Positions 32,489 to 58,188 are shown, numbered from the stretch's first letter. The stretch: DNA of 64,000 nt from an uncultured Bacilli bacterium (GCA_947627915.1 CANQXT010000001.1:2231-66230), one strand, 5' to 3'. Notes: generated by a model from the sequence alone, not told the origin. Made by a program: numbers and translations.

Positions 32489-32579
32489 TGGCGGAGCAGG
32501 AGAGATTTGAACTCTCGCGCCAGTTACCCGACCTACACCCTTAGCAGGGGCGCCTCTTCAGCCTCTTGAGTACTACTCC
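32489..32579 (-). tRNA. tRNA-Ser (anticodon GCU)
   Basis: The reverse complement folds as a class II tRNA. Acceptor stem GGAGTAG/CTGCTCC with one G-U pair and 3' GCCA, T-arm GAGAGTTCAAATCTCTC, anticodon stem CGCCC/GGGTG with loop CTGCTAA (anticodon GCT), and a long variable arm. 91 nt. Confidence 0.85.
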
Positions 32580-45311: not shown

Positions 45312-45860
45312 TTAAAATTTAACTTTAACATTTTGTCTTTCTTCATTACTTGCCTCAAAGAAAGTTTCTTTTTTAAATCCGAATATTCCTGCTACAATAT
45401 TTGATGGGAACATTTCTATCTTATTATTAAGTTTTAATACGGAATCGTTATAAAAACTTCTTGCATAACTAATTTGTTCTTCTGTTTCTCTTAATTCACC
45501 TTGAAGTTGTAAAAAATTTTCGTTAGCTTTTAAATCTGGATAACTTTCAGATAAAGCAAATAATCTACTCATTGCTTTACTTAATTCTCCATCAGCTTCA
45601 AGTTGTCCTTCTAAGTTATTAGCATTTACATAATTATTACGAGCTTTAATTACATTTTCTAAAGTTTCACTTTCATGTTTCATATAACCTTTAACTGTTT
45701 CAATTAAATTAGGTATTAAATCAAATCTTCTTTTTAATTGAACATCAATTTGACTATATTGATCTCTAACCTTATTTCTTAATGAAACTAAACTATTATA
45801 AACTGAACCAATAAAGATTCCTAAAACTAATAAAACCACTATTAAAATAATCCACGGCAT
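45312..45860 (-). CDS. lemA: LemA-family protein
   Basis: 182 aa. N-terminal TM, then VSLRNKVRDQYSQIDVQLKRRFDLIPNLIETVKGY, typical of LemA. Confidence 0.85.
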   Translation of the reverse strand: MPWIILIVVLLVLGIFIGSVYNSLVSLRNKVRDQYSQIDVQLKRRFDLIPNLIETVKGYMKHESETLENVIKARNNYVNANNLEGQLEADGELSKAMSRLFALSESYPDLKANENFLQLQGELRETEEQISYARSFYNDSVLKLNNKIEMFPSNIVAGIFGFKKETFFEASNEERQNVKVKF

Positions 45861-45976
45861 ACTTCATTCCTCCTATAAATTAATCTTAACATAAATAAAT
45901 GTTATTAGCAATTAATAATATGCTTAATTACTATTTTGTTGACAGATTTAATATTTAAATGTTTTTATAAATAAAA

Positions 45977-45994
45977 CTAGAGTGTGCTCTCTAG
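45977..45994. terminator. Palindromic hairpin CTAGAG-tgtgct-CTCTAG followed by a T-run (bidirectional terminator-like)
   Basis: Seen directly: 6-bp arms (45977-45982 and 45989-45994), A-rich before and tttctttttttaa after. Confidence 0.4.
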
Positions 45995-46002
45995 TTTCTT
46001 TT

Positions 46003-46110
46003 TTTAAGTTCCTCTTATGGTGGGAATCACCGCTTTTTTAAGTTCCTCTTATTGGTTGGAATCACCACTTTTTTAAGTTCCTCTCAACAGTGGGAATCAC
46101 TAGCTTTTTT
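46003..46110. repeat. Three tandem direct repeats of 34-35 bp (TTTTTTAAGTTCCTCT-N9-10-GGAATCAC-N3-4)
   Basis: AAGTTCCTCT at 46006, 46040 and 46075. GGGAATCAC/TGGAATCAC at 46022, 46057 and 46092. Units are separated by T6. Units 1 and 3 contain a short GGTG...CACC/CACT dyad; the centres vary. Confidence 0.7.
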
Positions 46111-46114
46111 ATAT

Positions 46115-46175
46115 GCTATTAAATTTAATAGCAATATTATTATATGCAAATTTGCATAGCTTAATTAACTTAAGC
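46115..46175. promoter_or_regulatory. Cluster of three distinct palindromes in the region upstream of lemA
   Basis: Seen directly: GCTATTAAATTTAATAGC (46115-46132, perfect 18 bp), TATGCAAATTTGCATA (46143-46158, perfect 16 bp) and GCTTAA-ttaac-TTAAGC (46159-46175). Confidence 0.4.
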
Positions 46176-46227
46176 CACTTTAAATATATATTTTTTCTTA
46201 TACCATTGTCAAGACCTATTATTTATA

Positions 46228-46577
46228 TTATTCTATTTCATATTCATAGATATTTGCATTTTGAGGATTAAATGTTAGAAAATTTGTATTCTCATCATAC
46301 CCTATTAAATTAAAATGTAAAGCTTTCATAAAACTCCCGTGAAAAATTATTAAAATATTTTTATTAGGATATTCTCTTTTTATGTTATCTAAAATGTTTT
46401 TGCTCTTTTTAAAGGAGAACAAATACATATATCTATTTTACTTAAATCTATCTTTTTTCTCAATTCTTTAGTTTGTTTTATTCCTTCTTCATTTAAAGCA
46501 ATATCAGTCAATCCCTGTAATAATCTTTGGTCATTCCAATCAGTTTTTCCGTGTCTAACAATATATAGTTTATGCAT
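46228..46577 (-). pseudogene. Histidine phosphatase (phosphoglycerate-mutase family) pseudogene, frameshifted and internally truncated
   Basis: ORF 46389..46577 encodes the N-terminus with the RHG catalytic motif (YIVRHGKTDWNDQRLLQG...CSPLKRAKTF). ORF 46228..46428 in another frame encodes a C-terminal piece (IIFHGSFMKALHF). The combined span of about 116 codons is roughly half a normal ~200-aa enzyme. Confidence 0.55.
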
Positions 46578-46600
46578 TTTTACCTCCTAGTTTTTATAAA

Positions 46601-48844
46601 TTAAGTACGCTTTTTAAATAATCCTTTAATCATTAACATTTGATAAATAATTGCCAATAATATAATTACACTAATTAATAAGAATGGATATAAATAAATG
46701 CTATAATTAAATCGAATAATATTTATTGTATAACCTAAGTTATAAGATATTATTAAATTACCTAATATAATAGATATAGTAATTAAAAGATAAGTCATTA
46801 AAAGAGCGATTAATCCTAACATTAAAGATTTAAAAATAAATATTTTTTTTATAATTAAATCTTTTATACCTAAAGAATACAATGTCAATATTTTATCTTT
46901 ATTACTCTTAAATACAAAATGGATATAAACAATAATTATTAATATGTTTACCAAAGCGAATATACAACCTAAAAAAGTAAAAATTGTTTTCACTTGACTA
47001 ACTAGTAGATTAATATTAGCCATATCATCACTATATAATGTTTTAAATTCAATATGTTCTTTATCAATGGAAAATAAATTTTTTAATTGTATTTTACTAG
47101 CATTATTAACATATATCTCTTTAACTAGTTGATGATTTAAATAAACATTATTTAATAAATTTTTATTAATAATTGTTAAATTGCCAATATCAATTACCTC
47201 TAATTCATAACTTAAATCATTCATATTATATAAATCATATAAATCCCATAGTTGCAGTTTTATTTTATCACTTTTTATAATAGATTGTTCTTTTGCTAAA
47301 TCTTTACCAATAATTATTTGCTTTAAATTTATATTTTCATCACTAATATAATTAATAGTCATATTATCGTTGTACTTTAACCCTAAAGTCATATTGGTAT
47401 AACTATTGGAATTAAAATTAGATATTTCAAAAAAATTTGAATTAATATAATATCTATATAAATATTGCATTATAATATTTTCATCATCATTATTAAGCGT
47501 ATCTTTATTTTTTATATCTTCATCTACTAAATAAATACCTACTATCTTTAATCTTACATCATTAACTAAAATTTCTTGGTTTAATAAATCAGTATAATTA
47601 TTTATTTCTATAATTTGATTATCTACATTACTTACGCCTAGACGAATAATATAATCGGCAAGAAAGTTAGAAATCATTAACTCATTTGCCCCTTTGGGAA
47701 GATTACCTATATAATTAAATTTATTTTCTTTAAGATCAACAAATATATTGTTATCTTCCGAACTATTATTATAAAATTTATAGTATTCCGTTATATTATC
47801 CGTATTCTTAAAAGTAAAAGTAAATACTTCGTTATTAACTATTAAATTACTACCATAAGAATAATTATAATTTTGTAAAAAAGATTCTAAATAATTTCTT
47901 TCAGAAACATTAAAACCCATTGTATAACTGTTTCTATCATCATTTTTTACAATTGTAATATTATTTTGATGATTATTAACAAGTGCTTCAGCATATGATT
48001 CATTTAGATCAAATTGAGTAAACATTATAGAAAAACCAAAGAAAAACATAGCCATAGTCATTGTTATAACAGCTAGTAAATATAAATTATTTTTCGTTTT
48101 AAATACTTTTTTAGATAAAAATTTTATTAGATTATTACTATATTCATAATCCTTTAAATAATAGTTAGATTGTTCATTTACATTAGAATGATTAACTTCA
48201 ATTAAACCATCAACTATATTCAAAATAGAATCTGCATAAATAGTAGCTCTATTTTTATCGTGACTCGCAACAAGAACTAGCCTTTTTTTACTTATCTCTT
48301 TTAATAATTTCCAAACTTCGTCAGAATTCTTTTGATCTAAATTACCTGTTGGTTCATCTGCAAGTATTATTTGGGGATTTTTAACAATAGCTCTAGCAAT
48401 TGCCACTCTTGCTTTTTGGCCACCTGATAATTCAACTACTTGACGATTTTTTAAATTTTCAATATCTAAATCTTTTAAAACAACATCTATTTTTTCTTCA
48501 TCATCTTGATTTTGTAAATCTAATGCTATTTTAATATTTTCATAAACAGTTAAATTATCTAATAAGTTAAATTCTTGAAAAACAAAGCCTATAACTTCGT
48601 TACGATAATTTGCTATTTCTTCCCTATTTAAGTCATTCAAACAAATATTATTAAAGAAAATATCACCTGAATTAGGGTAGTCTAGACCTCCAACAAGATT
48701 TAGTAATGTTGATTTACCACTTCCACTTTTACCAATTAAACAGAATAAACCATTATCTGGTAATGTAACATTAACATTATCTAAAGCTTTAACTGATTCA
48801 TATCTAGTTTTATATATTTTACTAATATTCTTTAATTTTATCAT
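46601..48844 (-). CDS. Fused ABC transporter ATPase + FtsX/MacB-type permease
   Basis: 747 aa. GKSGSGKSTLLN, LSGGQKARVAIARA, ILADEPTGNLD, a large extracytoplasmic domain and a C-terminal TM bundle. Close paralog of its neighbour. Confidence 0.8.
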   Translation of the reverse strand: MIKLKNISKIYKTRYESVKALDNVNVTLPDNGLFCLIGKSGSGKSTLLNLVGGLDYPNSGDIFFNNICLNDLNREEIANYRNEVIGFVFQEFNLLDNLTVYENIKIALDLQNQDDEEKIDVVLKDLDIENLKNRQVVELSGGQKARVAIARAIVKNPQIILADEPTGNLDQKNSDEVWKLLKEISKKRLVLVASHDKNRATIYADSILNIVDGLIEVNHSNVNEQSNYYLKDYEYSNNLIKFLSKKVFKTKNNLYLLAVITMTMAMFFFGFSIMFTQFDLNESYAEALVNNHQNNITIVKNDDRNSYTMGFNVSERNYLESFLQNYNYSYGSNLIVNNEVFTFTFKNTDNITEYYKFYNNSSEDNNIFVDLKENKFNYIGNLPKGANELMISNFLADYIIRLGVSNVDNQIIEINNYTDLLNQEILVNDVRLKIVGIYLVDEDIKNKDTLNNDDENIIMQYLYRYYINSNFFEISNFNSNSYTNMTLGLKYNDNMTINYISDENINLKQIIIGKDLAKEQSIIKSDKIKLQLWDLYDLYNMNDLSYELEVIDIGNLTIINKNLLNNVYLNHQLVKEIYVNNASKIQLKNLFSIDKEHIEFKTLYSDDMANINLLVSQVKTIFTFLGCIFALVNILIIIVYIHFVFKSNKDKILTLYSLGIKDLIIKKIFIFKSLMLGLIALLMTYLLITISIILGNLIISYNLGYTINIIRFNYSIYLYPFLLISVIILLAIIYQMLMIKGLFKKRT

Positions 48845-48845
48845 T

Positions 48846-51359
48846 TTAATCTTTTTCCTTTTTTATTATTTCTATTGGATTTAATTTTAATAGTTTTTTT
48901 ATTGTTGCTGTTATAGAAATATACAGAATTATAACATAAGATAATATTGTAAGAGGATAAAGATACCAATTTTGATAAATCAAATTAATTTTAAAACCTA
49001 CTTTGTTAGATATATAGTGATTAATTAAATTAGAACTTGGCATTAAACAAATTATAACTATTAAGAAAGGAATTATTGTTAACATGCATATTAATAAACT
49101 ATATATTTTTATAATATCTTTATCTTTAAATCCTAAAGATTTCATAATTCCAAAATCTTTTTTATTAGCAAATAATATAAGTAAATTAATTAATACCATT
49201 AAAACTATTAAGAATCCAAATAAAATTATCGAACTATATTTAGCAAATATTGAAGTTTTATTAATCATATTAATCATTGAACTTATTTTATTAGATAATG
49301 CTGTAGATATAATATATTTATCATTATCTATATGATTATTTAATAGGTCAATTAATTTATCTTCATTTTTTTCAGTTATGGTAATCGTATTAACATTATT
49401 TATACCAATAAAGTAATTTTCTAAAACATTATCCGATACTAAAAAAGGATTAGAATGAAATTGGCCATTATCTATTGAAGAAACATAATTAACTACTTTT
49501 AAACTATATTTTTCCATTTCTTTAGCTTTTGAATAATCATAAGGATCAGCAATAAATAAATCAATATTATTACCTAAAATATTATTTTGTTCCATATACA
49601 ATAAAGCAAAATCCCTTTCTGATAATTCTTTTTGACTTTCTAACTTATTTTCAAAATCGTTATTAGATAATAGATTTAATAAATACTTATTAAGAACAAT
49701 TTCATTATCATTTAAAAGATATGAATTATTTAAATAATAAGGTACTGTCCAAGCACTACTATTATAATCAATAAACTTATATTCATTATCTATAAAAAGG
49801 TAACTTTTAAATAATTCCGTATTTAATGAATTGTTTTGTAGGATATCTAAAGTAGTAAAGAAATTTTCATTACAATAAATAACAAAAGTTTTATTATAAA
49901 AATATCTTAATTCTTCATCAAATACAACTGCATTATTACCAAATTCATCAAGTTCATAACTAATAGTTTTGTTTTTAAAAGCATCAATGTCATAATCTAA
50001 ATCATATATACCAGTTATTTTAAAAGCTGTATTAATTGATGGATCAAATTGAAGAAAAACATCATCATTAATAATCTCATCATAACTCTTAGGATAATAT
50101 TCATTTCCTTCTTTATCTATTAAACCATAATTTATTATAAATCTAGCAAATAAATTAGAGATTAATATTTCATTATTATTTTTAGGAAAACTACCTATGT
50201 ATTTTTTAGAAAAATTCTCTTCTTTAACTTCTATAAATGATTTAATAGGAGTCATTAATTTATTGCATATTATGTTATAGCTTTCTGATGGTTCTTTTAT
50301 AATTTTATTAGCAAATTGAATTACCATATTTTGATAATTGCCAGCAATAGTATTTTCAATTTCATACTTTATATCTTTTGTATCTAAATAATTCGTTATA
50401 TCATCTATTTCAGTTTGTTTAAATTGCCAACTATGATAATCACCTACTGAATTTCTAACTAAACTAATATCATAATCATTTTTAAAATTAAGTTTTAATG
50501 CTTCAATATGTGAATTATTAATATCAAACCTAGTTAAATTAATCACAAAAGCATATAAAAAGAAGAAGATTAAAAAAATTAGACTAATTAATGAATTACG
50601 AATAATATTAGATTTAAAAATATATTTACTTACTTTAAATAAATTATTAAATTTTATTTTGGTTTGTTTTACCGGGTATTTCACTATTTCTTTAGTATCT
50701 ATTATATCTTTACTAATTTGACCATTCTCAATAAAAATAATATCATCGGCATATTTTTTAGCATTATCTTCATCGTGGGTAACAACTATTATTAAATAAT
50801 CTTTACTTAATGTTTTAAAAATATTCCAAATTATTTCCGAATTAGTACTATCAAGATTACCTGTTGGTTCATCTGCTAAAATTATTCGAGGATTTTTGAC
50901 AATAGCTCTGGCAATTGCTACTCTTGCTTTTTGGCCACCAGATAATTCTTTAATTTTTCTAAATTTTAGTGTATCTATATCTAATTGTTTCATTAAAATA
51001 TCAATTTTAGTTGTATCTTTTTTATTTTGTAATTCTAATGCTAATTTTATATTATCATAAACAGTTAATTTTTCTAACAAATAATATTCTTGAAATATAA
51101 ATCCTACTACATTGTTACGATAATCAGCTAGTTCATTGGAACTCATTATGCTTAAATCTTTATTATTAAAAATTATTTTCCCTTTAGTAGGATAGTCTAA
51201 TCCTCCAATAAGATTAAGTAGTGTTGATTTACCACTTCCACTTTTACCTAATAAAACATATAGACCAGTCTTGGGAAATGACAAATTTATATTATCAGCT
51301 GCAGTAATATTTTCTGATTTATTAGTATATATTTTACTTACATTTTTTAGTCTAATCAT
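48846..51359 (-). CDS. Fused ABC transporter ATPase + FtsX/MacB-type permease
   Basis: 837 aa. The NBD is highly similar to 46601..48844, a tandem duplicate. C-terminal FtsX-like helices (GIMKSLGFKDKDIIKIY). Confidence 0.8.
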   Translation of the reverse strand: MIRLKNVSKIYTNKSENITAADNINLSFPKTGLYVLLGKSGSGKSTLLNLIGGLDYPTKGKIIFNNKDLSIMSSNELADYRNNVVGFIFQEYYLLEKLTVYDNIKLALELQNKKDTTKIDILMKQLDIDTLKFRKIKELSGGQKARVAIARAIVKNPRIILADEPTGNLDSTNSEIIWNIFKTLSKDYLIIVVTHDEDNAKKYADDIIFIENGQISKDIIDTKEIVKYPVKQTKIKFNNLFKVSKYIFKSNIIRNSLISLIFLIFFFLYAFVINLTRFDINNSHIEALKLNFKNDYDISLVRNSVGDYHSWQFKQTEIDDITNYLDTKDIKYEIENTIAGNYQNMVIQFANKIIKEPSESYNIICNKLMTPIKSFIEVKEENFSKKYIGSFPKNNNEILISNLFARFIINYGLIDKEGNEYYPKSYDEIINDDVFLQFDPSINTAFKITGIYDLDYDIDAFKNKTISYELDEFGNNAVVFDEELRYFYNKTFVIYCNENFFTTLDILQNNSLNTELFKSYLFIDNEYKFIDYNSSAWTVPYYLNNSYLLNDNEIVLNKYLLNLLSNNDFENKLESQKELSERDFALLYMEQNNILGNNIDLFIADPYDYSKAKEMEKYSLKVVNYVSSIDNGQFHSNPFLVSDNVLENYFIGINNVNTITITEKNEDKLIDLLNNHIDNDKYIISTALSNKISSMINMINKTSIFAKYSSIILFGFLIVLMVLINLLILFANKKDFGIMKSLGFKDKDIIKIYSLLICMLTIIPFLIVIICLMPSSNLINHYISNKVGFKINLIYQNWYLYPLTILSYVIILYISITATIKKLLKLNPIEIIKKEKD

Positions 51360-51424
51360 TTACGGCGCCTCCAATACTTTAACTCTTATTGTTAATATTA
51401 TACCATATGTTCATTTCTTATTGA

Positions 51425-51631
51425 TTATTTTTTTATAGAGATAATCATCGCTACACCTTGTTCTGTAAACACACGAGGATTTTTATATTTACCTCCACGA
51501 GTTTCAATATATTTTTTGTCCGTTAATTTAAAACTAAATCTTTCTGGAAATTTTTGAGGATTATTTCTAACCGCTTCATTTACTCTCTTAATATATACTC
51601 CATAATGTTTTGCTAAACCAAAGTTTAACAT
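51425..51631 (-). pseudogene. Truncated ORF6N/KilA-N-like domain gene remnant (N-terminal 68 codons only)
   Basis: MLNFGLAKHYGVYIKRVNEAVRNNPQKFPERFSFKLTDKK...NPRVFTEQGVAMI matches the ORF6N-domain consensus ([32 protein letters not shown]...FTEQGVAML) but stops right after it. Confidence 0.45.
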
Positions 51632-51664
51632 AACTTACTTTTCTCTTGCCATACTTTTATCAAA

Positions 51665-52870
51665 TTATTTTTCTAATAACCAATCTATAATATTTTTATG
51701 AATTATACCATTTTGAGAATAGTCTAATTTATCTGTTGATATAACATATTTAGGATAGTTATCTTGAATATTATCATAAGCACCAAATTCTCTTTCTTCT
51801 GTTTCTTTATTAGAAAGTTCAAATGTAACTTGATAATACTCTTTTTGATTATGCTTTGTAGCAATAAAGTCTATTTCTTTGCCATTATTATTTCCAACAC
51901 TTACACTATAACCTCTAAAAATAAGTTCATTAAAGACAATATTTTCTAAATAGGCACCATATTGAGTTTTTTTATTTATATTTAGAATTTGTCCTAATCC
52001 TAAATCAGTTAGATAATATTTATCTTTTCTTGACAATATCCTTTTGCCTCTTATATCATAAGTAGAAATTTTAGACATTAATAGAGCTTCTTCAGCATAG
52101 TCCAAATACTCATAGATTGTTTTCGAAGAAACAGGAATCTTTTCTGTTTCAAAAACACTCATCATATTAGTTGGTGAAAATGTTTGACTTGGGTTTGTTA
52201 CTAAATACTCCATAACTCTTTCAAATATTGCTACGTTTTTTATAGAGTTTCTTTTTACGATGTCTTTTAATACTATTGAATCAAAGAGATCTTTTAAATA
52301 TGTTTGTATACCTTCTATAGATGTAAAGGAAAACCTTTGAGGCATGCCTCCCCATAACAAATAATCATTAAATGCTTCTTCTATATCACTTTTTTCTTTT
52401 ATATTTTTATACTCTACAACTTCTTTAAAATTAAATGGTGCAATTTTAAAAGTCACATATCTTCCTGATAAAAGTGTAGCTAACTCAGAAGATAAGAGTT
52501 TTGAATTAGAACCAGTTACAAATATTGAAACATTTAAAGTTGATTTAAAAGAATTAATTGCTTTTTCCCATTCATCAACCATTTGAACTTCATCAAATAG
52601 TAGAAAATATTTTTCTTTATCTTTAATTTTTTCTTTAATGTACTTATTTAAATCTAAATAATTTTTTATAAAAGAAAATTCTACATTTTCAAAATTAATA
52701 TAAATAATATGATCTCTATCATTATTATTTTCTTTTAATTCTTCAATTATTTGCAACAACAATATAGATTTACCACATCTTCTAATTCCCGTGATAACTT
52801 TTATTATGTCCATATCATAAAATTCGCGTATTTTAGATAAATATGCTTCTCTTTTTATCATTTTTATCAC
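51665..52870 (-). CDS. AAA+ ATPase of the COG1373/DUF4143 family
   Basis: 401 aa. Walker A GIRRCGKS, Walker B LLFDEVQ and the C-terminal DUF4143-like region typical of this widespread uncharacterised ATPase family. Confidence 0.75.
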   Translation of the reverse strand: MIKMIKREAYLSKIREFYDMDIIKVITGIRRCGKSILLLQIIEELKENNNDRDHIIYINFENVEFSFIKNYLDLNKYIKEKIKDKEKYFLLFDEVQMVDEWEKAINSFKSTLNVSIFVTGSNSKLLSSELATLLSGRYVTFKIAPFNFKEVVEYKNIKEKSDIEEAFNDYLLWGGMPQRFSFTSIEGIQTYLKDLFDSIVLKDIVKRNSIKNVAIFERVMEYLVTNPSQTFSPTNMMSVFETEKIPVSSKTIYEYLDYAEEALLMSKISTYDIRGKRILSRKDKYYLTDLGLGQILNINKKTQYGAYLENIVFNELIFRGYSVSVGNNNGKEIDFIATKHNQKEYYQVTFELSNKETEEREFGAYDNIQDNYPKYVISTDKLDYSQNGIIHKNIIDWLLEK

Positions 52871-52980
52871 CTAAATTAATTATACAGTTAAAGTCCAAAA
52901 AAGTCAATATATTTTCTTATAGGAAAATATAATTAAAAATATTGCTTTATGTTTTCCTATTACTTATTATTTGCCATTCC

Positions 52981-53067
52981 TAGAAATATTCAAAATAATA
53001 CCGATACTAAGCATACTCACAAGTAACGAAAAGCTACTATAACTAAGAAAAGATAAAATAACTTTCT
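52981..53067. repeat. Degenerate duplicate of the ftsW 3' end (direct repeat with 54094..54180); att-like scar
   Basis: An 87-bp direct-repeat pair with about 85% identity by eye: tagaaatattcaaaataatacc... occurs at both 52981 and 54094. Copy B encodes the true FtsW C-terminus (...LSYGGSSLLVSMLSIGIILNISKNN*). Copy A would encode ...LSYSSFSLLVSMLSIGIILNISRNGK*. Confidence 0.6.
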
Positions 53068-53124
53068 AAACATTACCAATATAGTTGATTTTTAATATGT
53101 TGCACTTTCACAATAACTAAATAA

Positions 53125-53943
53125 TTATTTTATAATTGTAAGTACATATTTTATTAAACTGCCTTTTACGATTTTATCTTCTAGTTTATTAATAGAAAAA
53201 GTTTTATTACCTGCATAATTTAGAGATGCTCCACAATGATAAATTTCTTTTTGGTCTAATATAATGTATCTATCATGAAAATCATTACTATAAAATACCT
53301 TTAAATTATTATATTGTTTTTGATATTTATTTATATCTATTTCTTTTAATAAACTATTAGTTTTACATATTATAATTACATCAATTTTTATATTTCTTAT
53401 CATATCTAAAACAGTTTTATCTGCATAATTATCAATAATAATTATATTGTTATGTGCATCATTTAAAATATCAACTATTTTAGAATAAGCATCATATATT
53501 TGTCCATTAAAATAAATTTCATTTTCTTTTTTCTTTTCTTCAAATCTATTAAAAGAATCTTGCAACAATTTTATATCTTCATCATGCTTTATTACTAAAT
53601 TATTAATATATTTTTGCTCAATCAATTCATTAGAAATATACTTGCGCATTATTACAAAAGCACGCATAATGCTAACACTTACTTTTGTGGCAATCGGAGT
53701 TCTTAAAACACTTGCAAGCATCGCAACTCCTTGCTCGGTAAAAACATATGGATTTTTTCGAACTCCACCATATCCATTCAAACTTGAAGTCCCAATTTGA
53801 AACTTCAAGTTTGAAAATTCTTCGTTGGTTAATTGAAAATAAAAATCTTCAGGAAATCTATCAATATTTCTTTTTACTGACTGATTAATTCTCTTAGTGC
53901 CATTTACTCATCCATAAAGTTTTGCTAAATCAGAGTCTAGCAT
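53125..53943 (-). pseudogene. ORF6N-domain protein gene disrupted by an in-frame TGA near the N-terminus
   Basis: From ATG 53943 the frame reads [53 protein letters not shown]...NPYVFTEQGVAMLASVLRTPIATKVSVSIMRAF, a full ORF6N domain with a TGA stop (53908-53910) after 11 codons. The ORF track starts it at a TTG at 53808, inside the domain. Confidence 0.5.
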
Positions 53944-54082
53944 AACTTGCTTTCCTCTTATTTCATAAATCATATTCTTAATTTTTTCTTCTTTAATTAA
54001 TGTAATTGTGTCCATATAAATTCCCCCTTACTGTGACCATAAGCAAACTATAGCAAATATATGTTTGTATGTCAATATTATT

Positions 54083-55168
54083 TTAATTATTTTTAGAAAT
54101 ATTCAAAATAATACCAATGCTAAGCATACTTACAAGTAAAGAAGAGCCGCCATAACTAAGGAAAGGTAAAGTAACTCCAGTCACAGGCACGAGACCAACA
54201 ACCACCGCTAGATTTAAAACCGCTTGAATAATTATTCCAAAAATTAATCCAAAACATAAATATTTTCCAAATAAATCATTTGTTTTTAAGGTAATTCTAA
54301 TACCTCTATAAAATAAGAAAAAGAAAGCACTTGTTACAATTAAAACTCCTAAAAAGCCTAATTCTTCACTAATAATTGAAAAGATAAAATCAGTTTGGGG
54401 TTCTGGTAAATAAAAATATTTTTGTCTGGATTTAAAAAAACCTTGACCAAGTATTCCGCCCGGTCCAATTGCATACAAGCTTTGAAGAATTTGGTAACCA
54501 CTTCCAAGGGGATCGCTCCAAGGATTTAAAAAACTAATTATACGCATCATTCGATAAGGTGCTGCAATAACAATCCCAATAATACCTACTAGACCAAGAA
54601 GACCTATTTTAACAAAGAAAGATACTTTTACTCCACTTATAAAAATCATTGCAATAAGAGTACAAACGATAACCATAGAGGTACCAAAATCAGGTTCTAA
54701 CATAATGATAAAAAAGAAAAAACCGATAACAAGTAAAATAGGTAAAACACCTTTAACAATACTTTTCATCTTTTTCTTATTATTTGTTAAATATTTAGCT
54801 ACAAAGATAATTAAACCAATTTTAGCAAGTTCACTAGGTTGAATTCCTAAAGAACCTATTCCAAACCAACTACGACTACCATTTCTAACACTACCTATAC
54901 CAGGTATTAAAACTAATACTAATAATATTGCACATATAAATAAAATAATATTAGCATATTTATAATATAAATGATAATCTATTTTTGAGGTAAAATAAAT
55001 GACGAATAATCCCATAAGAAAAAATATACTTTGCATTTTAACAAAATGAAAAGCATCATTAAATTTATATACTGCCCAAACATAACTAGCTGAGTATATC
55101 ATTATCAAACCAAAAACAATTAGAATGATAGTCATTATTAAAAAAGATCCATCAATTCTTTTTTTCAT
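54083..55168 (-). CDS. ftsW: SEDS-family cell-division protein FtsW/SpoVE (dcw cluster)
   Basis: 361 aa, 10 TM. FYLPEPQTDFIF and PFLSYGGSSLL motifs. Immediately downstream of mraY. Confidence 0.85.
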   Translation of the reverse strand: MKKRIDGSFLIMTIILIVFGLIMIYSASYVWAVYKFNDAFHFVKMQSIFFLMGLFVIYFTSKIDYHLYYKYANIILFICAILLVLVLIPGIGSVRNGSRSWFGIGSLGIQPSELAKIGLIIFVAKYLTNNKKKMKSIVKGVLPILLVIGFFFFIIMLEPDFGTSMVIVCTLIAMIFISGVKVSFFVKIGLLGLVGIIGIVIAAPYRMMRIISFLNPWSDPLGSGYQILQSLYAIGPGGILGQGFFKSRQKYFYLPEPQTDFIFSIISEELGFLGVLIVTSAFFFLFYRGIRITLKTNDLFGKYLCFGLIFGIIIQAVLNLAVVVGLVPVTGVTLPFLSYGGSSLLVSMLSIGIILNISKNN

Positions 55169-55195: not shown

Positions 55196-56188
55196 TTAAA
55201 TCCAAACACCATATGTTATAGCAACCATTGCTAAAAGTAATCCAACTACATAAAACAATTTAACAATATCACTTTCACACCAATGCAACTCTTCAAAATG
55301 ATGATGAAGAGGAGCTTTTAAAAATAATCTTTTATTAAAATTACGAATTAAAAACATTTGAATTAAACTACTTAATGTTTCAATTACAAAGACACCGCCA
55401 ATAATTGCTAAAGATAATTCGTGTCTTGTTAATATAGCAATAGTTGCTAAAGCACCTCCTAATGCTAAAGAACCAAAATCACCCATAAATACTTTAGCAG
55501 GATGACTATTATAAACTAAGAAACCAAGTAATGATCCAACTATTAAGAAACAAAAAATAGCAATTTCTTGATAACCTTCTAACCAACCACAATTCCACGA
55601 AATAATACCATAAGCTACAAAAGCAATCGCTGAAAGACCAGCACATAAACCATCTAACCCATCAGTTATATTAACTGCATTCGAAGTACCTACTAATAAA
55701 AATAAGATAAAGATACCAAATGTCCATCCTAAAGGTATTATAATATTTAATGCTGTAAATTCAAGAGTTGATTTACCTCCACTCTTCATAAAGAAATAAA
55801 AGAATACTAAAGCAATAATCATTTGAATTAAGAATTTAGTAACAATACTTAAACCTTTATTATTATTTAATTTAACCTTTAATAAATCATCTATTCCTCC
55901 TAAAAGAGCATATGCTAAAAAGACAAATATCAGAATAAATAAATTATAACTAAAATTAATACTTTTATTAATATATAACAAAATTAAAGAAAAAATGGTT
56001 GGAAAAATAAATATTATCCCTCCCATTGTTGGAGTTCCTTCTTTTTCTAAATGACGTTCATTAATTGTTCTACTAACTTTTTGACCTATATTAAACTTTT
56101 TTAATAATGGTATAAAAATAAGACCACTGGCAATTGCCAAAACAAAGCCTAACATCATAGCCATAGCAGCTTTTGCTAAAATTAACAT
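55196..56188 (-). CDS. mraY: Phospho-N-acetylmuramoyl-pentapeptide transferase
   Basis: 330 aa, 10 TM. NAVNITDGLDGLCAGLS motif and DxxD. Confidence 0.85.
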   Translation of the reverse strand: MLILAKAAMAMMLGFVLAIASGLIFIPLLKKFNIGQKVSRTINERHLEKEGTPTMGGIIFIFPTIFSLILLYINKSINFSYNLFILIFVFLAYALLGGIDDLLKVKLNNNKGLSIVTKFLIQMIIALVFFYFFMKSGGKSTLEFTALNIIIPLGWTFGIFILFLLVGTSNAVNITDGLDGLCAGLSAIAFVAYGIISWNCGWLEGYQEIAIFCFLIVGSLLGFLVYNSHPAKVFMGDFGSLALGGALATIAILTRHELSLAIIGGVFVIETLSSLIQMFLIRNFNKRLFLKAPLHHHFEELHWCESDIVKLFYVVGLLLAMVAITYGVWI

Positions 56189-56268: not shown

Positions 56269-58188
56269 TTAGTTTAACAACAAAGTAATCGTTGTATCAG
56301 CACTTTGAAAAGTATTAGGACTAGGAGACATATAAATAACTTTATCTCCACTACCGGTATATTTAATTTTAAATTCTTTTAATTTTTTAGTAGCTTCTTC
56401 TTTAGTCATTCCCACAACATCTGGTAAAACATAATAATGAACATCTAAATATTGATATTCTTTTAACATACCACCACTTTGTTCTTTTATTTTTAACGTT
56501 TCAATAGTAGATAACATAATATTTCTTGCAATAGGAGCAGATACTGTTCCTCCATATTGGGTTACCCCTTTAGGATTATCCACAGCCACATAGATAACTG
56601 CTTCAGGATCATTAGCAGGTAAAAAGCCAATAAATGAAAGAATATAATTACCAACCATATATTTACCATTACTTACTTTTTGAGCCGTTCCGGTTTTTCC
56701 ACCAACGCGATAATTCTCAATATAAGCATTTCTACCCGTCCCATTAGCCACGACACTCTCTAAAGCAAAACGAACCATTTGGGAAGTTTCTTTACTTATT
56801 ACTTCTCTTTTTACACGAGGTTTATTTTCATAAATAATTGCGGAACTACTTTCATCTATAATTGCATCAACTACATAAGGAGTATTTAAAAGTCCACCAT
56901 TAATCGCGGCAGAGACTGCTGTTACTTGTTGAATAGGAGTAACACTTATACCTTGACCAAAGGCAGTTGTTGCTAACTCTACAGGTCCCATTTTATCTAA
57001 CGAAAACAATATTCCATTACCTTCACCATTTAAATCAATACCTGTTTTAGAACCAAAGCCAAATTTTTTTATGTAATTCATTAATGTTTCTTTACCTAAC
57101 TTTTCGCCTAAAGTAACAAAACCGGGGTTACAAGAATTTTCTACTACTTCTAAATATGTTTGAGCTCCGTGACCACCATGTTTCCAACAATGAAGAGTTG
57201 AACCTTCTACTGTTATTGCTCCAGAATCATAATATGTATCCTTAAATAAATCAACTACCCCTTCTTCCAAACTACTTGCTAATGTAATTATTTTGAAAGT
57301 TGAACCTGGTTCATAAGTTTTCCATATTGGTAAATTACGATTTATAACTTCTTCACTATAACTTTGATAATCATTTGGATCAAATGATGGTAAACTACCC
57401 ATTGCAAGTACTTTCCCTGTTTTAGGATCCATAACAATACTTAAAGCATTATCTGCGTTATATTTATCCATTGCATTATTAAGTTCATTATAGATTGCTT
57501 CCATTAATTCTAAATCTAATGTTAGTTTCAAAGTCATTCCTTTAGATGGGGCAATATAACTATCAGGTACCTCTAATTTATTACCTTTACCATCACTATA
57601 ATATTTTAAAGAACCATTAACACCCGTCAAATATTTATCATAAGTAAGTTCTAACCCCGAAAGACCTTGATTATCACTACCAACAAAGCCAATAATATGA
57701 GCAAGCATTTCCCCATATGGGTAATATCTTTTGGAATCAACAATTAAATAAACACCATCATAACCTAATTTTTCAATTTTTTCAGCTGTTTTGCTATCTA
57801 AGTCCATTCCTTTTCGAATTATTTCCATACTACTATTTTTTGCCACATATTTATAAACATCATCAAAATCACAATTTAATATTTCTGCTATATCTTTCGA
57901 TACCTTTTCCTTGTTTTCAGCTTTTATCTGTCCAGGTACCACATATATTGTAGTTGTAACAATACTAGTAGCTAATACTTTACCATTTCGATCAACTATA
58001 TCTCCTCTTGGAGCATTAATAGTCATTCTTCTACTCCATAAATCTTCAGTTATTTTAGATAATTTATTATAAGAAAATACTTGAATATAAAACACTTTTC
58101 CTATTATTAATAAAAGTATAATTATAATAATTAATAATATAAATCTAATTCTTGTATGTATATCATTAAAAAACATATTATCCCTCAT
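56269..58188 (-). CDS. Class B penicillin-binding protein (SpoVD/PBP2x-like transpeptidase with C-terminal PASTA)
   Basis: 639 aa. N-terminal TM, dimerisation domain and transpeptidase motifs STFK (EPGSTFKI), SCN (ENSCNPGF) and KTGT (GGKTGTAQ). PASTA domain at the C-terminus. Confidence 0.85.
   Translation of the reverse strand: MRDNMFFNDIHTRIRFILLIIIIILLLIIGKVFYIQVFSYNKLSKITEDLWSRRMTINAPRGDIVDRNGKVLATSIVTTTIYVVPGQIKAENKEKVSKDIAEILNCDFDDVYKYVAKNSSMEIIRKGMDLDSKTAEKIEKLGYDGVYLIVDSKRYYPYGEMLAHIIGFVGSDNQGLSGLELTYDKYLTGVNGSLKYYSDGKGNKLEVPDSYIAPSKGMTLKLTLDLELMEAIYNELNNAMDKYNADNALSIVMDPKTGKVLAMGSLPSFDPNDYQSYSEEVINRNLPIWKTYEPGSTFKIITLASSLEEGVVDLFKDTYYDSGAITVEGSTLHCWKHGGHGAQTYLEVVENSCNPGFVTLGEKLGKETLMNYIKKFGFGSKTGIDLNGEGNGILFSLDKMGPVELATTAFGQGISVTPIQQVTAVSAAINGGLLNTPYVVDAIIDESSSAIIYENKPRVKREVISKETSQMVRFALESVVANGTGRNAYIENYRVGGKTGTAQKVSNGKYMVGNYILSFIGFLPANDPEAVIYVAVDNPKGVTQYGGTVSAPIARNIMLSTIETLKIKEQSGGMLKEYQYLDVHYYVLPDVVGMTKEEATKKLKEFKIKYTGSGDKVIYMSPSPNTFQSADTTITLLLN

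Follow-up and report, generated by a model that had tools for sequence, protein, structure and literature searches.

The region between ftsW, encoding a SEDS (shape, elongation, division and sporulation) glycosyltransferase, and lemA in an uncultured gut Bacilli bacterium known from a rabbit-gut metagenome-assembled genome (GCA_947627915.1, CANQXT010000001.1:2231–66230; this stretch of 64,000 nucleotides (nt) is the window, and positions are counted from its first letter) was, with a probability of about 0.7, identified as a stack of remnants of large serine recombinase (LSR) elements that have lost the recombinase, located at an integration hotspot that spans this region (45861–54082) and has its left edge at an attachment site within the 3′ end of ftsW. 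Such stacks of decayed LSR-element cassettes belong to a known type of genomic scar, here at a target site for which no report was found; in the literature searched, ftsW was not described as an integration site, which is absence of evidence only. The first-pass annotation of the window had placed a decayed insertion island at 51425–54180; the insertion region itself was confirmed, whereas its extent had to be revised to 45861–54082, which includes two ABC-FtsX genes and a His_Phos_1 pseudogene. All genes and cassettes of this region are on the minus strand.

The 3′ end of ftsW was present twice. A direct repeat of 88 nt (52976–53063 and 54089–54176; identity 85%, spacing 1113) formed the largest repeat family (D1) within 50.5–56.5 kb (blastn E = 7e-25), and the best ungapped match of the tail copies was 75/88 versus a maximum of 47 and a mean of 42.9 in 100 shuffles of 10 kb, which bore out the roughly 85% identical repeat noticed at first. 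Copy A (54086–54176; VTLPFLSYGGSS...NISKNN) comprised the working last 30 codons of ftsW. Copy B (52967–53063; …SYSSFS…NISRNGK and a stop codon), probably the displaced original tail in the course of decay, read in frame as VILSFLSYSSFSLLVSMLSIGIILNISRNGK followed by a stop codon, with the PFLSYGGSS motif broken to SFLSYSSFS. Copy B, together with the DNA downstream of it, was orthologous to the functional ftsW tail and the ATPase cassette of locus L015 (loci from related genomes and metagenomes are designated L001 and so on) and also aligned with the orthologous copy in L001. The nucleotide identity of the window with L001 over the ORF6N 3′ flank and copy B was 65–75%, the lowest anywhere in the region; for copy B, this is consistent with neutral decay. 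In L004, the distal tail copy (dup2) continued into the lemA upstream region exactly like the functional tail of the empty site L010. Since copy B corresponds to the functional tail of L015 and dup2 of L004 to the tail of L010, the distal copy would be the old tail, with new cassettes having entered upstream of it. Extra ftsW tails after cassettes were found in L001, L004 (two), L017, L035 and L085, with a common start about 95 nt before the stop codon.

The edge of copy B (53063/53064) was in register with the attR junctions of LSR elements in L085, L099 and L101, as in a remnant of such an element; thus, the proposal that the tail copy marks an integration junction at a decayed insertion site in the ftsW 3′ end was supported by an edge at the LSR crossover core. 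This core, GGAGT (54174–54178), corresponds to the Gly-Val codons of PVTG/VTLPF and lies in the attB of an ftsW-specific LSR family; the recognition arms of the recombinase would lie around it at about 54150–54200. Junctions at the core were attR in L085, L099, L101, L104–L109, L110, L111 and L113 and attL in L101, L111, L113, L020 and L064, and, when anchored on the FLSY codons, the LSR junctions and the edges of the cassette tails were all in register between GG and (A/G)GT. In total, the LSR family was joined to or split ftsW-type genes at this core in at least 12 distinct loci. A conjugative element (TraG, 537-aa LSR) in L085 ended against an ftsW tail, which was followed by an ORF6N gene and a second tail (the two tails were 92% identical over 130 nt), and in L099/L100 an integrative and conjugative element (ICE) was likewise followed by an ftsW tail. 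A scan with the element-arm pattern detected six further metagenome loci, each with an LSR, the arm and a different ftsW tail.

Elements of 4 kb resided inside the SEDS gene in L101–L103 and L111–L112, with products cut to 333 or 337 aa and a tail fragment left behind, and the same foreign left end followed directly after …CCAGTTACAGG in L064 and in L020, a member of the same clade with an ftsW 87% identical to that of the window. The left junction products were …GVTL and a stop codon in L101, …PVTGV with 27 junk codons in L113 and …PVTG with 7 junk codons in L020. It should be noted that loci were read up to 10 kb on either side, so that left junctions come from small elements and contig ends (L020, L064) and not from the large ICEs of L085 and L099. 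The LSR elements with a readable left junction (L101, L111, L113, L020/L064) truncate ftsW and carry no tail, which contradicts the initial suggestion that the element supplied a replacement 3′ end. In the IMG/VR viral contigs, nothing close to the ftsW-tail peptide, the ORF6N protein or the degenerate tail DNA pattern was detected, and LSR relatives had an identity of at most 36%. As a separate observation, the elements in L101–L103, L111–L112, L113–L115, L020 and L064 cut the SEDS gene 28 codons before its end in assembled, apparently stable populations, and Spo0A was encoded near the element of L111.

The search for ftsW yielded 495 loci. Empty sites were identified in L007, L009, L010, L021 and L024, in which lemA-DUF2207 followed ftsW after 12–160 nt; relatives without the island therefore have ftsW directly before its normal neighbour, as would be predicted for an insertion. 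The earlier view that the island interrupts the division and cell wall (dcw) cluster was not upheld, since the closest empty-site species have lemA-DUF2207 after ftsW and murG was found after ftsW solely in L014, L047 and L048, which are distant relatives. The missing murG is, judging by this gene order, a lineage trait and not an effect of the island. The same spot was occupied in other species by other cargo, namely, ToxN/AbiQ, a HipA-like kinase, RelB, a GT8 glycosyltransferase, peptidases and a radical-SAM/UvrD block.

The link to an intact element was most direct for the ATPase cassette. The gene of an AAA_14 + DUF4143 ATPase (51665–52861, maximal open reading frame (ORF) to 52870; Pfam AAA_14 6.5e-35, DUF4143 1.6e-17), correctly assigned in the first-pass annotation as a COG1373/DUF4143 AAA+ ATPase, was intact and encoded 398 aa, with a probable start at the ATG at 52861, as in the gene calls of public assemblies. 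Its product matched the PADLOC defence candidate PDC-S01 over the full length (3.3e-149, residues 3–400 versus positions 9–408/412 of the hidden Markov model (HMM); intact ORF of 398–401 aa). The control region (52871–52958) contained a 12-bp inverted repeat (52921–52932/52947–52958) and a promoter TTGACT-17-TATAAT (52879–52907; 11/12 of the consensus); it was conserved in L001, L002, L015 and L035, and the promoter with the promoter-proximal repeat arm was retained in L113. In L010, the promoter and the repeat survived as a gene-less scar. The arms of the repeat, AGGAAAAYATAA and TTATATTTTCCT, were separated by a variable 14-nt spacer, and a further half-site overlapped the −35 box; the repeat is likely an operator or a structured site of the PDC-S01 cassette.

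Homologous cargo was found in L113–L115, where a minimal intact element of 3.3 kb, consisting of the ATPase gene, an ORF of 49 aa and the LSR gene, lay between the 5′ part and the tail of ftsW. The window (52941–51670) and the ATPase module of L113 had a nucleotide identity of 78.7% over 1273 nt; the matching stretch began some 45 nt before the −35 box and ended with the stop codon. In L035, the sequence that follows the ATPase gene aligned collinearly with an LSR-element right end of the L110 type (E = 3e-6, with an exact match of 16 nt) and lacked the LSR gene; it led into the core and the old tail.

Two ORF6N gene copies, one of them cut to 68 codons, had been reported initially, and both were confirmed (114.6 bits for the full copy and 62.6 bits for the truncated copy; Pfam PF10543 cut-off 27.8). 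The full copy, an ORF6N-PLD gene (53125–54015; Pfam ORF6N 2.7e-33) belonging to the PADLOC candidate PDC-S05, starts with the ATG at 54015 behind a GGGGG ribosome-binding site. The in-frame TGA at 53908–53910 was where it had been noted, although it is codon 36 from this start and not, as had been stated, the codon after codon 11. It stands for a Cys codon (TGT to TGA; homologues have LYGCKNGTK or LYKCVNGTK). The same arrangement including the TGA was present in separate ENA (European Nucleotide Archive) metagenome assemblies (five contigs read; four shown, from four samples), which argues against a one-off sequencing error, and the full ORF6N gene is a fixed pseudogene. Reading of the TGA as selenocysteine or under genetic code 4 was rejected: the fold z-score was +0.6, with no selenocysteine insertion sequence, and TGA is a stop codon in this genome (G+C 23%), terminating 5/51 ORFs, while Trp was encoded by TGG 86 times and never by TGA, and long ORFs were unbroken under table 11.

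Immediately after the ftsW stop codon, the ORF6N cassette had a strong promoter TTGACA-17-TATAGT with an extended TG (54047–54075; 11/12 of the consensus), which was conserved in L001, L004 and L017. Its 3′ flank (…ATCAGTTATATT…, 53064–53124) was conserved between species, abutted copy B at the recombinase core and was collinear with the right arm of LSR elements, with which its similarity was weak (9-nt exact match to the L110 arm). The second copy, which would be the oldest layer, is a stump (51425–51660, ORF 51425–51631 of 68 codons; Pfam ORF6N 4.3e-17, profile positions 12–86/86) with a different N-domain type, an in-frame TAA, an internal deletion and no C-terminal domain; its homology extended upstream to about 51660, against the ATPase stop codon, and included a 49-nt repeat (D2) common to the full copy.

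No intact ORF for PDC-S05 was present in the window, TGA being codon 36 in all assemblies; the PDC-S05 HMM matched P0001, the closest homologue (88% identity), encoded in L085, over the full length (2.1e-93, residues 5–290 versus 10–299/306). The earlier conjecture of a defence-like cargo is supported by the PADLOC matches of both genes. The C-terminal half had the fold of the phospholipase D (PLD) superfamily, with Nuc, NucT, Zucchini, SauUSI and BfiI among its structural relatives and non-catalytic PLD folds (FAM83, TrmB) as top matches; Pfam PLDc models did not match the protein. In place of the HKD motif (HxK(x)4D(x)6GSxN), H247-D-R249, D254, G262, S264 and N266 were invariant in 35 homologues, with Lys replaced by Arg. 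An ORF6N gene followed ftsW in 13 of the species examined.

The N-terminal domain had a nucleotide identity of 57–73% between the window and L001, versus 89–97% for the C-terminal half, and at least three sequence types of N-domain were swapped onto a near-constant C-terminal PLD half (53703–54015 compared with 51425–51660; L001, L037, L040). Two tandem N-domains occurred in L040 and in database members of about 410 aa. These swaps suggest a diversifying exchange of a putative DNA-binding module. Two further arrangements were observed: in L092–L094, from another species, ftsW-ORF6N preceded an mraY in opposite orientation and, beyond it, the PBP (penicillin-binding protein) gene, with the breakpoint at ORF6N and no second tail, which is a local rearrangement of the dcw cluster, and in L017 (5560–5900), further decayed ORF6N fragments and short GACCTCAAGTTTA repeats past the old tail indicate that in this species the hotspot went through additional cycles of insertion and decay.

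The cassettes had a history different from that of the core genes beside them. Identity at third codon positions between the window and L001 was 0.65 for mraY and 0.67 for ftsW, whereas it was 0.86 for the ORF6N C-terminal half and 0.875 for the ATPase gene; the corresponding values were 0.58 for core genes and 0.81 for the ATPase relative to L015, and 0.32–0.37 and 0.63, respectively, relative to L035. On the strength of these comparisons, transfer of the ORF6N and ATPase cassettes between species is more recent than the divergence of the core genes on either side. The cassettes did not form the pair envisaged at first: each has its own promoter, each occurs alone elsewhere (only the ATPase in L015, only ORF6N in L004 and L017), and their histories differ.

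The following sequence of events would account for these data. The LSR family cuts ftsW between the Gly and Val codons of PVTG/VTLPF, about 95 nt before the stop codon, and layers would stack with the newest nearest to ftsW. The first layer would be the old ORF6N gene, now the 68-codon stump, and the second the DUF4143 ATPase cassette, derived from the minimal type of LSR element (ATPase, small ORF, LSR) that is intact in other gut Bacilli. The third would be the ORF6N-PLD cassette, in which the Cys-to-TGA nonsense mutation arose later. Copy B would be the ftsW tail that was functional while the ATPase cassette was proximal; the arrival of the ORF6N cassette would have displaced it downstream, where it decays neutrally. 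Each cassette is one self-contained gene with its own promoter, from a candidate anti-phage family (PDC-S05, PDC-S01). The association with LSR elements is weaker for the ORF6N cassette than for the ATPase cassette, being based on the coincidence of junctions, the arrangement in L085 and the faint arm similarity.

Because intact elements split ftsW, there must have been a further step by which an intact tail came to stand left of every cassette. Either template switching at the short repeat of the core duplicated the displaced tail, and the product was selected as restoring FtsW, or a circle carrying the cassette and a tail entered the ftsW tail by RecA-mediated Campbell insertion. One of these two routes is favoured, and the data do not separate them. 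The resemblance of the tail copies to the tail of their own genome fits the template switch, while the horizontal mobility and a tail identity above that of the gene body (0.94–0.97 versus 0.84–0.86 in the three closest species, a weak indication given only 34 codons) fit the RecA-mediated circle. Imprecise excision capturing the tail and ORF6N was dropped, since it is right of the cargo, and not left of the tail, that the arm-like sequence is found.

Several observations weigh against this reconstruction. The tail copies resemble the functional tail of their own genome, which fits local duplication or gene conversion too; in L015, the old tail expected after the ATPase was not detectable; no intact LSR element carrying ORF6N was found, and the resemblance of the ORF6N 3′ flank to an element arm is only weak (E = 0.025). 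The window contains neither an LSR gene nor a recognisable left arm (P′) and hence no element as such; it is owing to the absence of the recombinase and the arms that the feature is called a remnant. Finally, intact elements disrupt ftsW, so that integration followed by decay requires an extra, unobserved step to arrive at an intact ftsW with a second tail.

A further possibility, tentative in comparison with the stack of remnants, is that units of an ftsW tail, a promoter and one defence gene constitute a working cassette system, an integron-like array with the newest unit first that spreads between species of uncultured gut Bacilli. The parent LSR elements split ftsW; their tail-carrying derivatives would then enter ftsW by homologous recombination or stay after excision of the element, leaving the gene undamaged.

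Events without any mobile element are unlikely. In such a scenario, ORF6N and the ATPase would be old residents, the tails would have arisen by tandem duplication or unequal crossing-over with gene conversion, and the empty sites would be losses; the likeness of each tail copy to the functional tail of its own genome, the tandem repetition of the tail-spacer-ORF6N unit in L004 and L087, the joining of dup1 of L004 at a GGxGTxxCT microhomology inside ORF6N, and the near-equal similarity of the functional tail and the gene body between L004 and L010 (0.90 versus 0.91, hence no tail excess) would agree with it. However, the edge of the duplication coincided with the LSR core within about 2 nt at every locus with a readable ftsW junction, the ATPase module is found inside an intact LSR element and is followed by LSR-arm debris in L035, and at synonymous sites the cassettes have diverged far less than the genes beside them. 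Integration of the LSR family at this core and a conflict between the cassette phylogeny and the species tree are both largely indicated already. It is very improbable that the ORF6N-PLD protein is a site-specific nuclease encoded by a free-standing homing-type gene, which would cut cassette-free ftsW and be copied in by repair together with a resistant tail. The DNA-binding ORF6N domain, the fold related to Nuc, NucT, Zucchini, SauUSI and BfiI, the mosaic N-terminal domains and the occurrence of homologues as solitary or tandem single-gene inserts (nusG-rplK in L090, AP endonuclease-PBP in L095–L098) would suit such a gene, but no duplicated gene ends surround ORF6N at these non-ftsW loci, and the ATPase cassette has the same tail architecture in L035 without any ORF6N; moreover, the catalytic Lys of HKD is an invariant Arg, the top structural matches are non-catalytic, and the family is a defence candidate, one member of which has a reported anti-phage phenotype.

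Slightly less credible still is an island of a tyrosine integrase, since lost, whose attL/attR identity block the repeats would represent; islands of this type typically copy some tens of bases from the 3′ end of a gene. A tyrosine integrase was encoded about 500 nt past the second tail in L085, yet it belongs to an element beside a tRNA-like 3′ fragment and not to the tail; none adjoined any ftsW tail in the loci read, and in roughly a dozen separate loci it was a serine recombinase that abutted the tail, each time at the same nucleotide. As for the possibility, raised in the first-pass annotation, that the similarity reflects a conserved end of a paralogous SEDS gene, copy B does keep a 31-codon open frame resembling a SEDS C-terminus. 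Nevertheless, the sequence upstream of copy B is the ORF6N gene with nothing SEDS-like, the similarity starts abruptly at the recombinase core, and copy B with its downstream DNA is orthologous to the stretch of L015 in which the same ATPase cassette follows the functional ftsW tail; the notion that copy B terminates a decayed second SEDS gene is accordingly rejected as extremely improbable.

Among the closest known systems to the stack of LSR-element remnants are the arrays of staphylococcal cassette chromosome (SCC) and pseudo-SCC elements at the rlmH (orfX) 3′ end in staphylococci, which are inserted by the large serine recombinases CcrAB/CcrC, are bounded by repeats of about 15–30 bp and restore rlmH. 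Common to both are a serine-recombinase attB in the last codons of a housekeeping gene, stacking with the newest unit next to the gene, recombinase-less remnants between gene-end repeats and an adaptive cargo. In contrast to SCC, the repeat is about 90 nt here, ftsW is left truncated by intact elements, a different recombinase family acts on a different target in a different host clade, and the cargo consists of defence candidates in place of resistance genes. Intervening elements of the skin and SPbeta type bear LSRs and split sporulation genes such as sigK and spsM. Similarly, the intact relatives in L101, L111, L113 and L020 carry an LSR and interrupt a SEDS gene, the one occupying the spoVE position in the dcw cluster, and several relatives have the adjacent spoVD-like PBP gene interrupted by another LSR element; unlike in those systems, the window holds remnants only, ftsW is intact, and there is no evidence of timed excision or of sporulation in the lineage.

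The arrangement also resembles the accretion of ICEs and cis-mobilizable elements (CIMEs), e.g., ICESt1/ICESt3 at the fda 3′ end in Streptococcus thermophilus (PMC5704250). There, a new element integrates beside a remnant to give a tandem, and L085/L086 show the order ICE, tail, ORF6N, tail. As in a CIME, all ORFs in 45861–54082 were accounted for, and none encoded integration or transfer functions. A CIME keeps both attL and attR, whereas here only the right junction was recognisable, at the core and with a decayed element-side arm, and on the left there was a clean functional ftsW tail and not a B-core-P′ attL; as far as the sequence allows a judgement, the strict CIME definition fails for want of a recognisable attL. 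Systems of the ICESt1/ICESt3 type, moreover, use tyrosine integrases.

PDC-S05 and PDC-S01 are phage-defence candidates from guilt-by-embedding (bioRxiv 10.1101/2024.01.29.577857). One PDC-S05 protein, described with a RhuM domain and not ORF6N, reportedly lowered the efficiency of plating of T7 and T5 about 1000-fold, and PDC-S01 gave no protection in the same phage test (bioRxiv 10.1101/2024.09.26.614923). By frequency, PDC-S01 has been ranked fourth among the defence-type genes of prokaryotes. The genes of the ftsW region resemble these candidates in their full-length HMM matches and as single-gene units with their own promoters; unlike the embedded candidates, they are situated in an integration hotspot and not within restriction-modification or BREX systems, and the PDC-S05 copy is a pseudogene.

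Thus, an essential-type cell-wall gene contains a conserved attB for an LSR family widespread among uncultured gut Bacilli. The finding exposes an active ftsW-specific recombinase family; the mechanism itself is not new. A 3.3-kb LSR element carries PDC-S01, a very common defence candidate, as its only cargo. Where ftsW is split 28 codons short of its end, the question arises of how the cell tolerates the break or mends it. In annotation terms, what looks like an ftsW-tail pseudogene plus two orphan genes can be read as layers of one hotspot, and the short, well-conserved attB together with the compact recombinases may interest those mining LSRs for integration tools.

The order of genes on the minus strand was spoVD-like PBP, mraY, ftsW, ORF6N, second ftsW tail, ATPase, ORF6N stump, two ABC/FtsX genes, His_Phos pseudogene, lemA and DUF2207. 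The ftsW gene (54083–55168) was intact and encoded 361 aa (Pfam FTSW_RODA_SPOVE 3.1e-114, profile positions 5–353/356), with an identical protein sequence on five metagenome contigs; mraY was located at 55196–56188, and the spoVD-like PBP gene (56269–58188) was intact in the window. In L001, L020, L024, L026, L037, L041, L042, L044 and L046, the latter gene, upstream of mraY, was interrupted around residue 352 by some 3–6 kb of inserted DNA, which carried, where checked, a different LSR about 25% identical to the ftsW-targeting LSR; this insert is a second gene-splitting element of the same dcw cluster.

Further into the variable region, two fused ABC-ATPase/FtsX-permease genes (46601–51359; 837 and 747 aa; Pfam, NCBIfam) were adjacent paralogues, 35% identical, with bacteriocin-export, LolD and MacB-type ATPases as best NCBIfam matches. 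Between ftsW and lemA, this pair occurred in this species only and was absent in all other loci examined. The His_Phos_1 (phosphoglycerate-mutase family) pseudogene (46228–46577) was in two pieces, the gene being broken by a stop codon and also by a deletion within it; in L081 the pieces are called as genes of 62 aa, which matches His_Phos_1, and 33 aa. Consistent with the initial statement that no integrase remains, tblastn of the window with large serine recombinase and tyrosine integrase queries gave no match. The right edge of the region is formed by lemA (45312–45860; Pfam LemA, LemA cluster c1 in relatives), the native downstream neighbour of ftsW, from which it is 8.2 kb away here.

A tRNA-Ser(GCT) was predicted at 32489–32579 by ARAGORN, and a whole-window Rfam scan at gathering thresholds returned zero matches, the tRNA family included. 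Upstream of lemA (45960–46212, minus strand), a strong promoter (46212–46183) was followed by about 200 nt with tandem units and a terminator-like hairpin (45974–45997). The three tandem units of about 35 nt (AAAAAAG-NGGTGATTCCCACC-…AGAGGAACTT) each consisted of a small hairpin and a purine-rich run. An Rfam search with this element found no family; from its layout, it looks like a putative small RNA gene. A homologue of the hairpin element was located in L085 (7080–7300), after the second ftsW tail.

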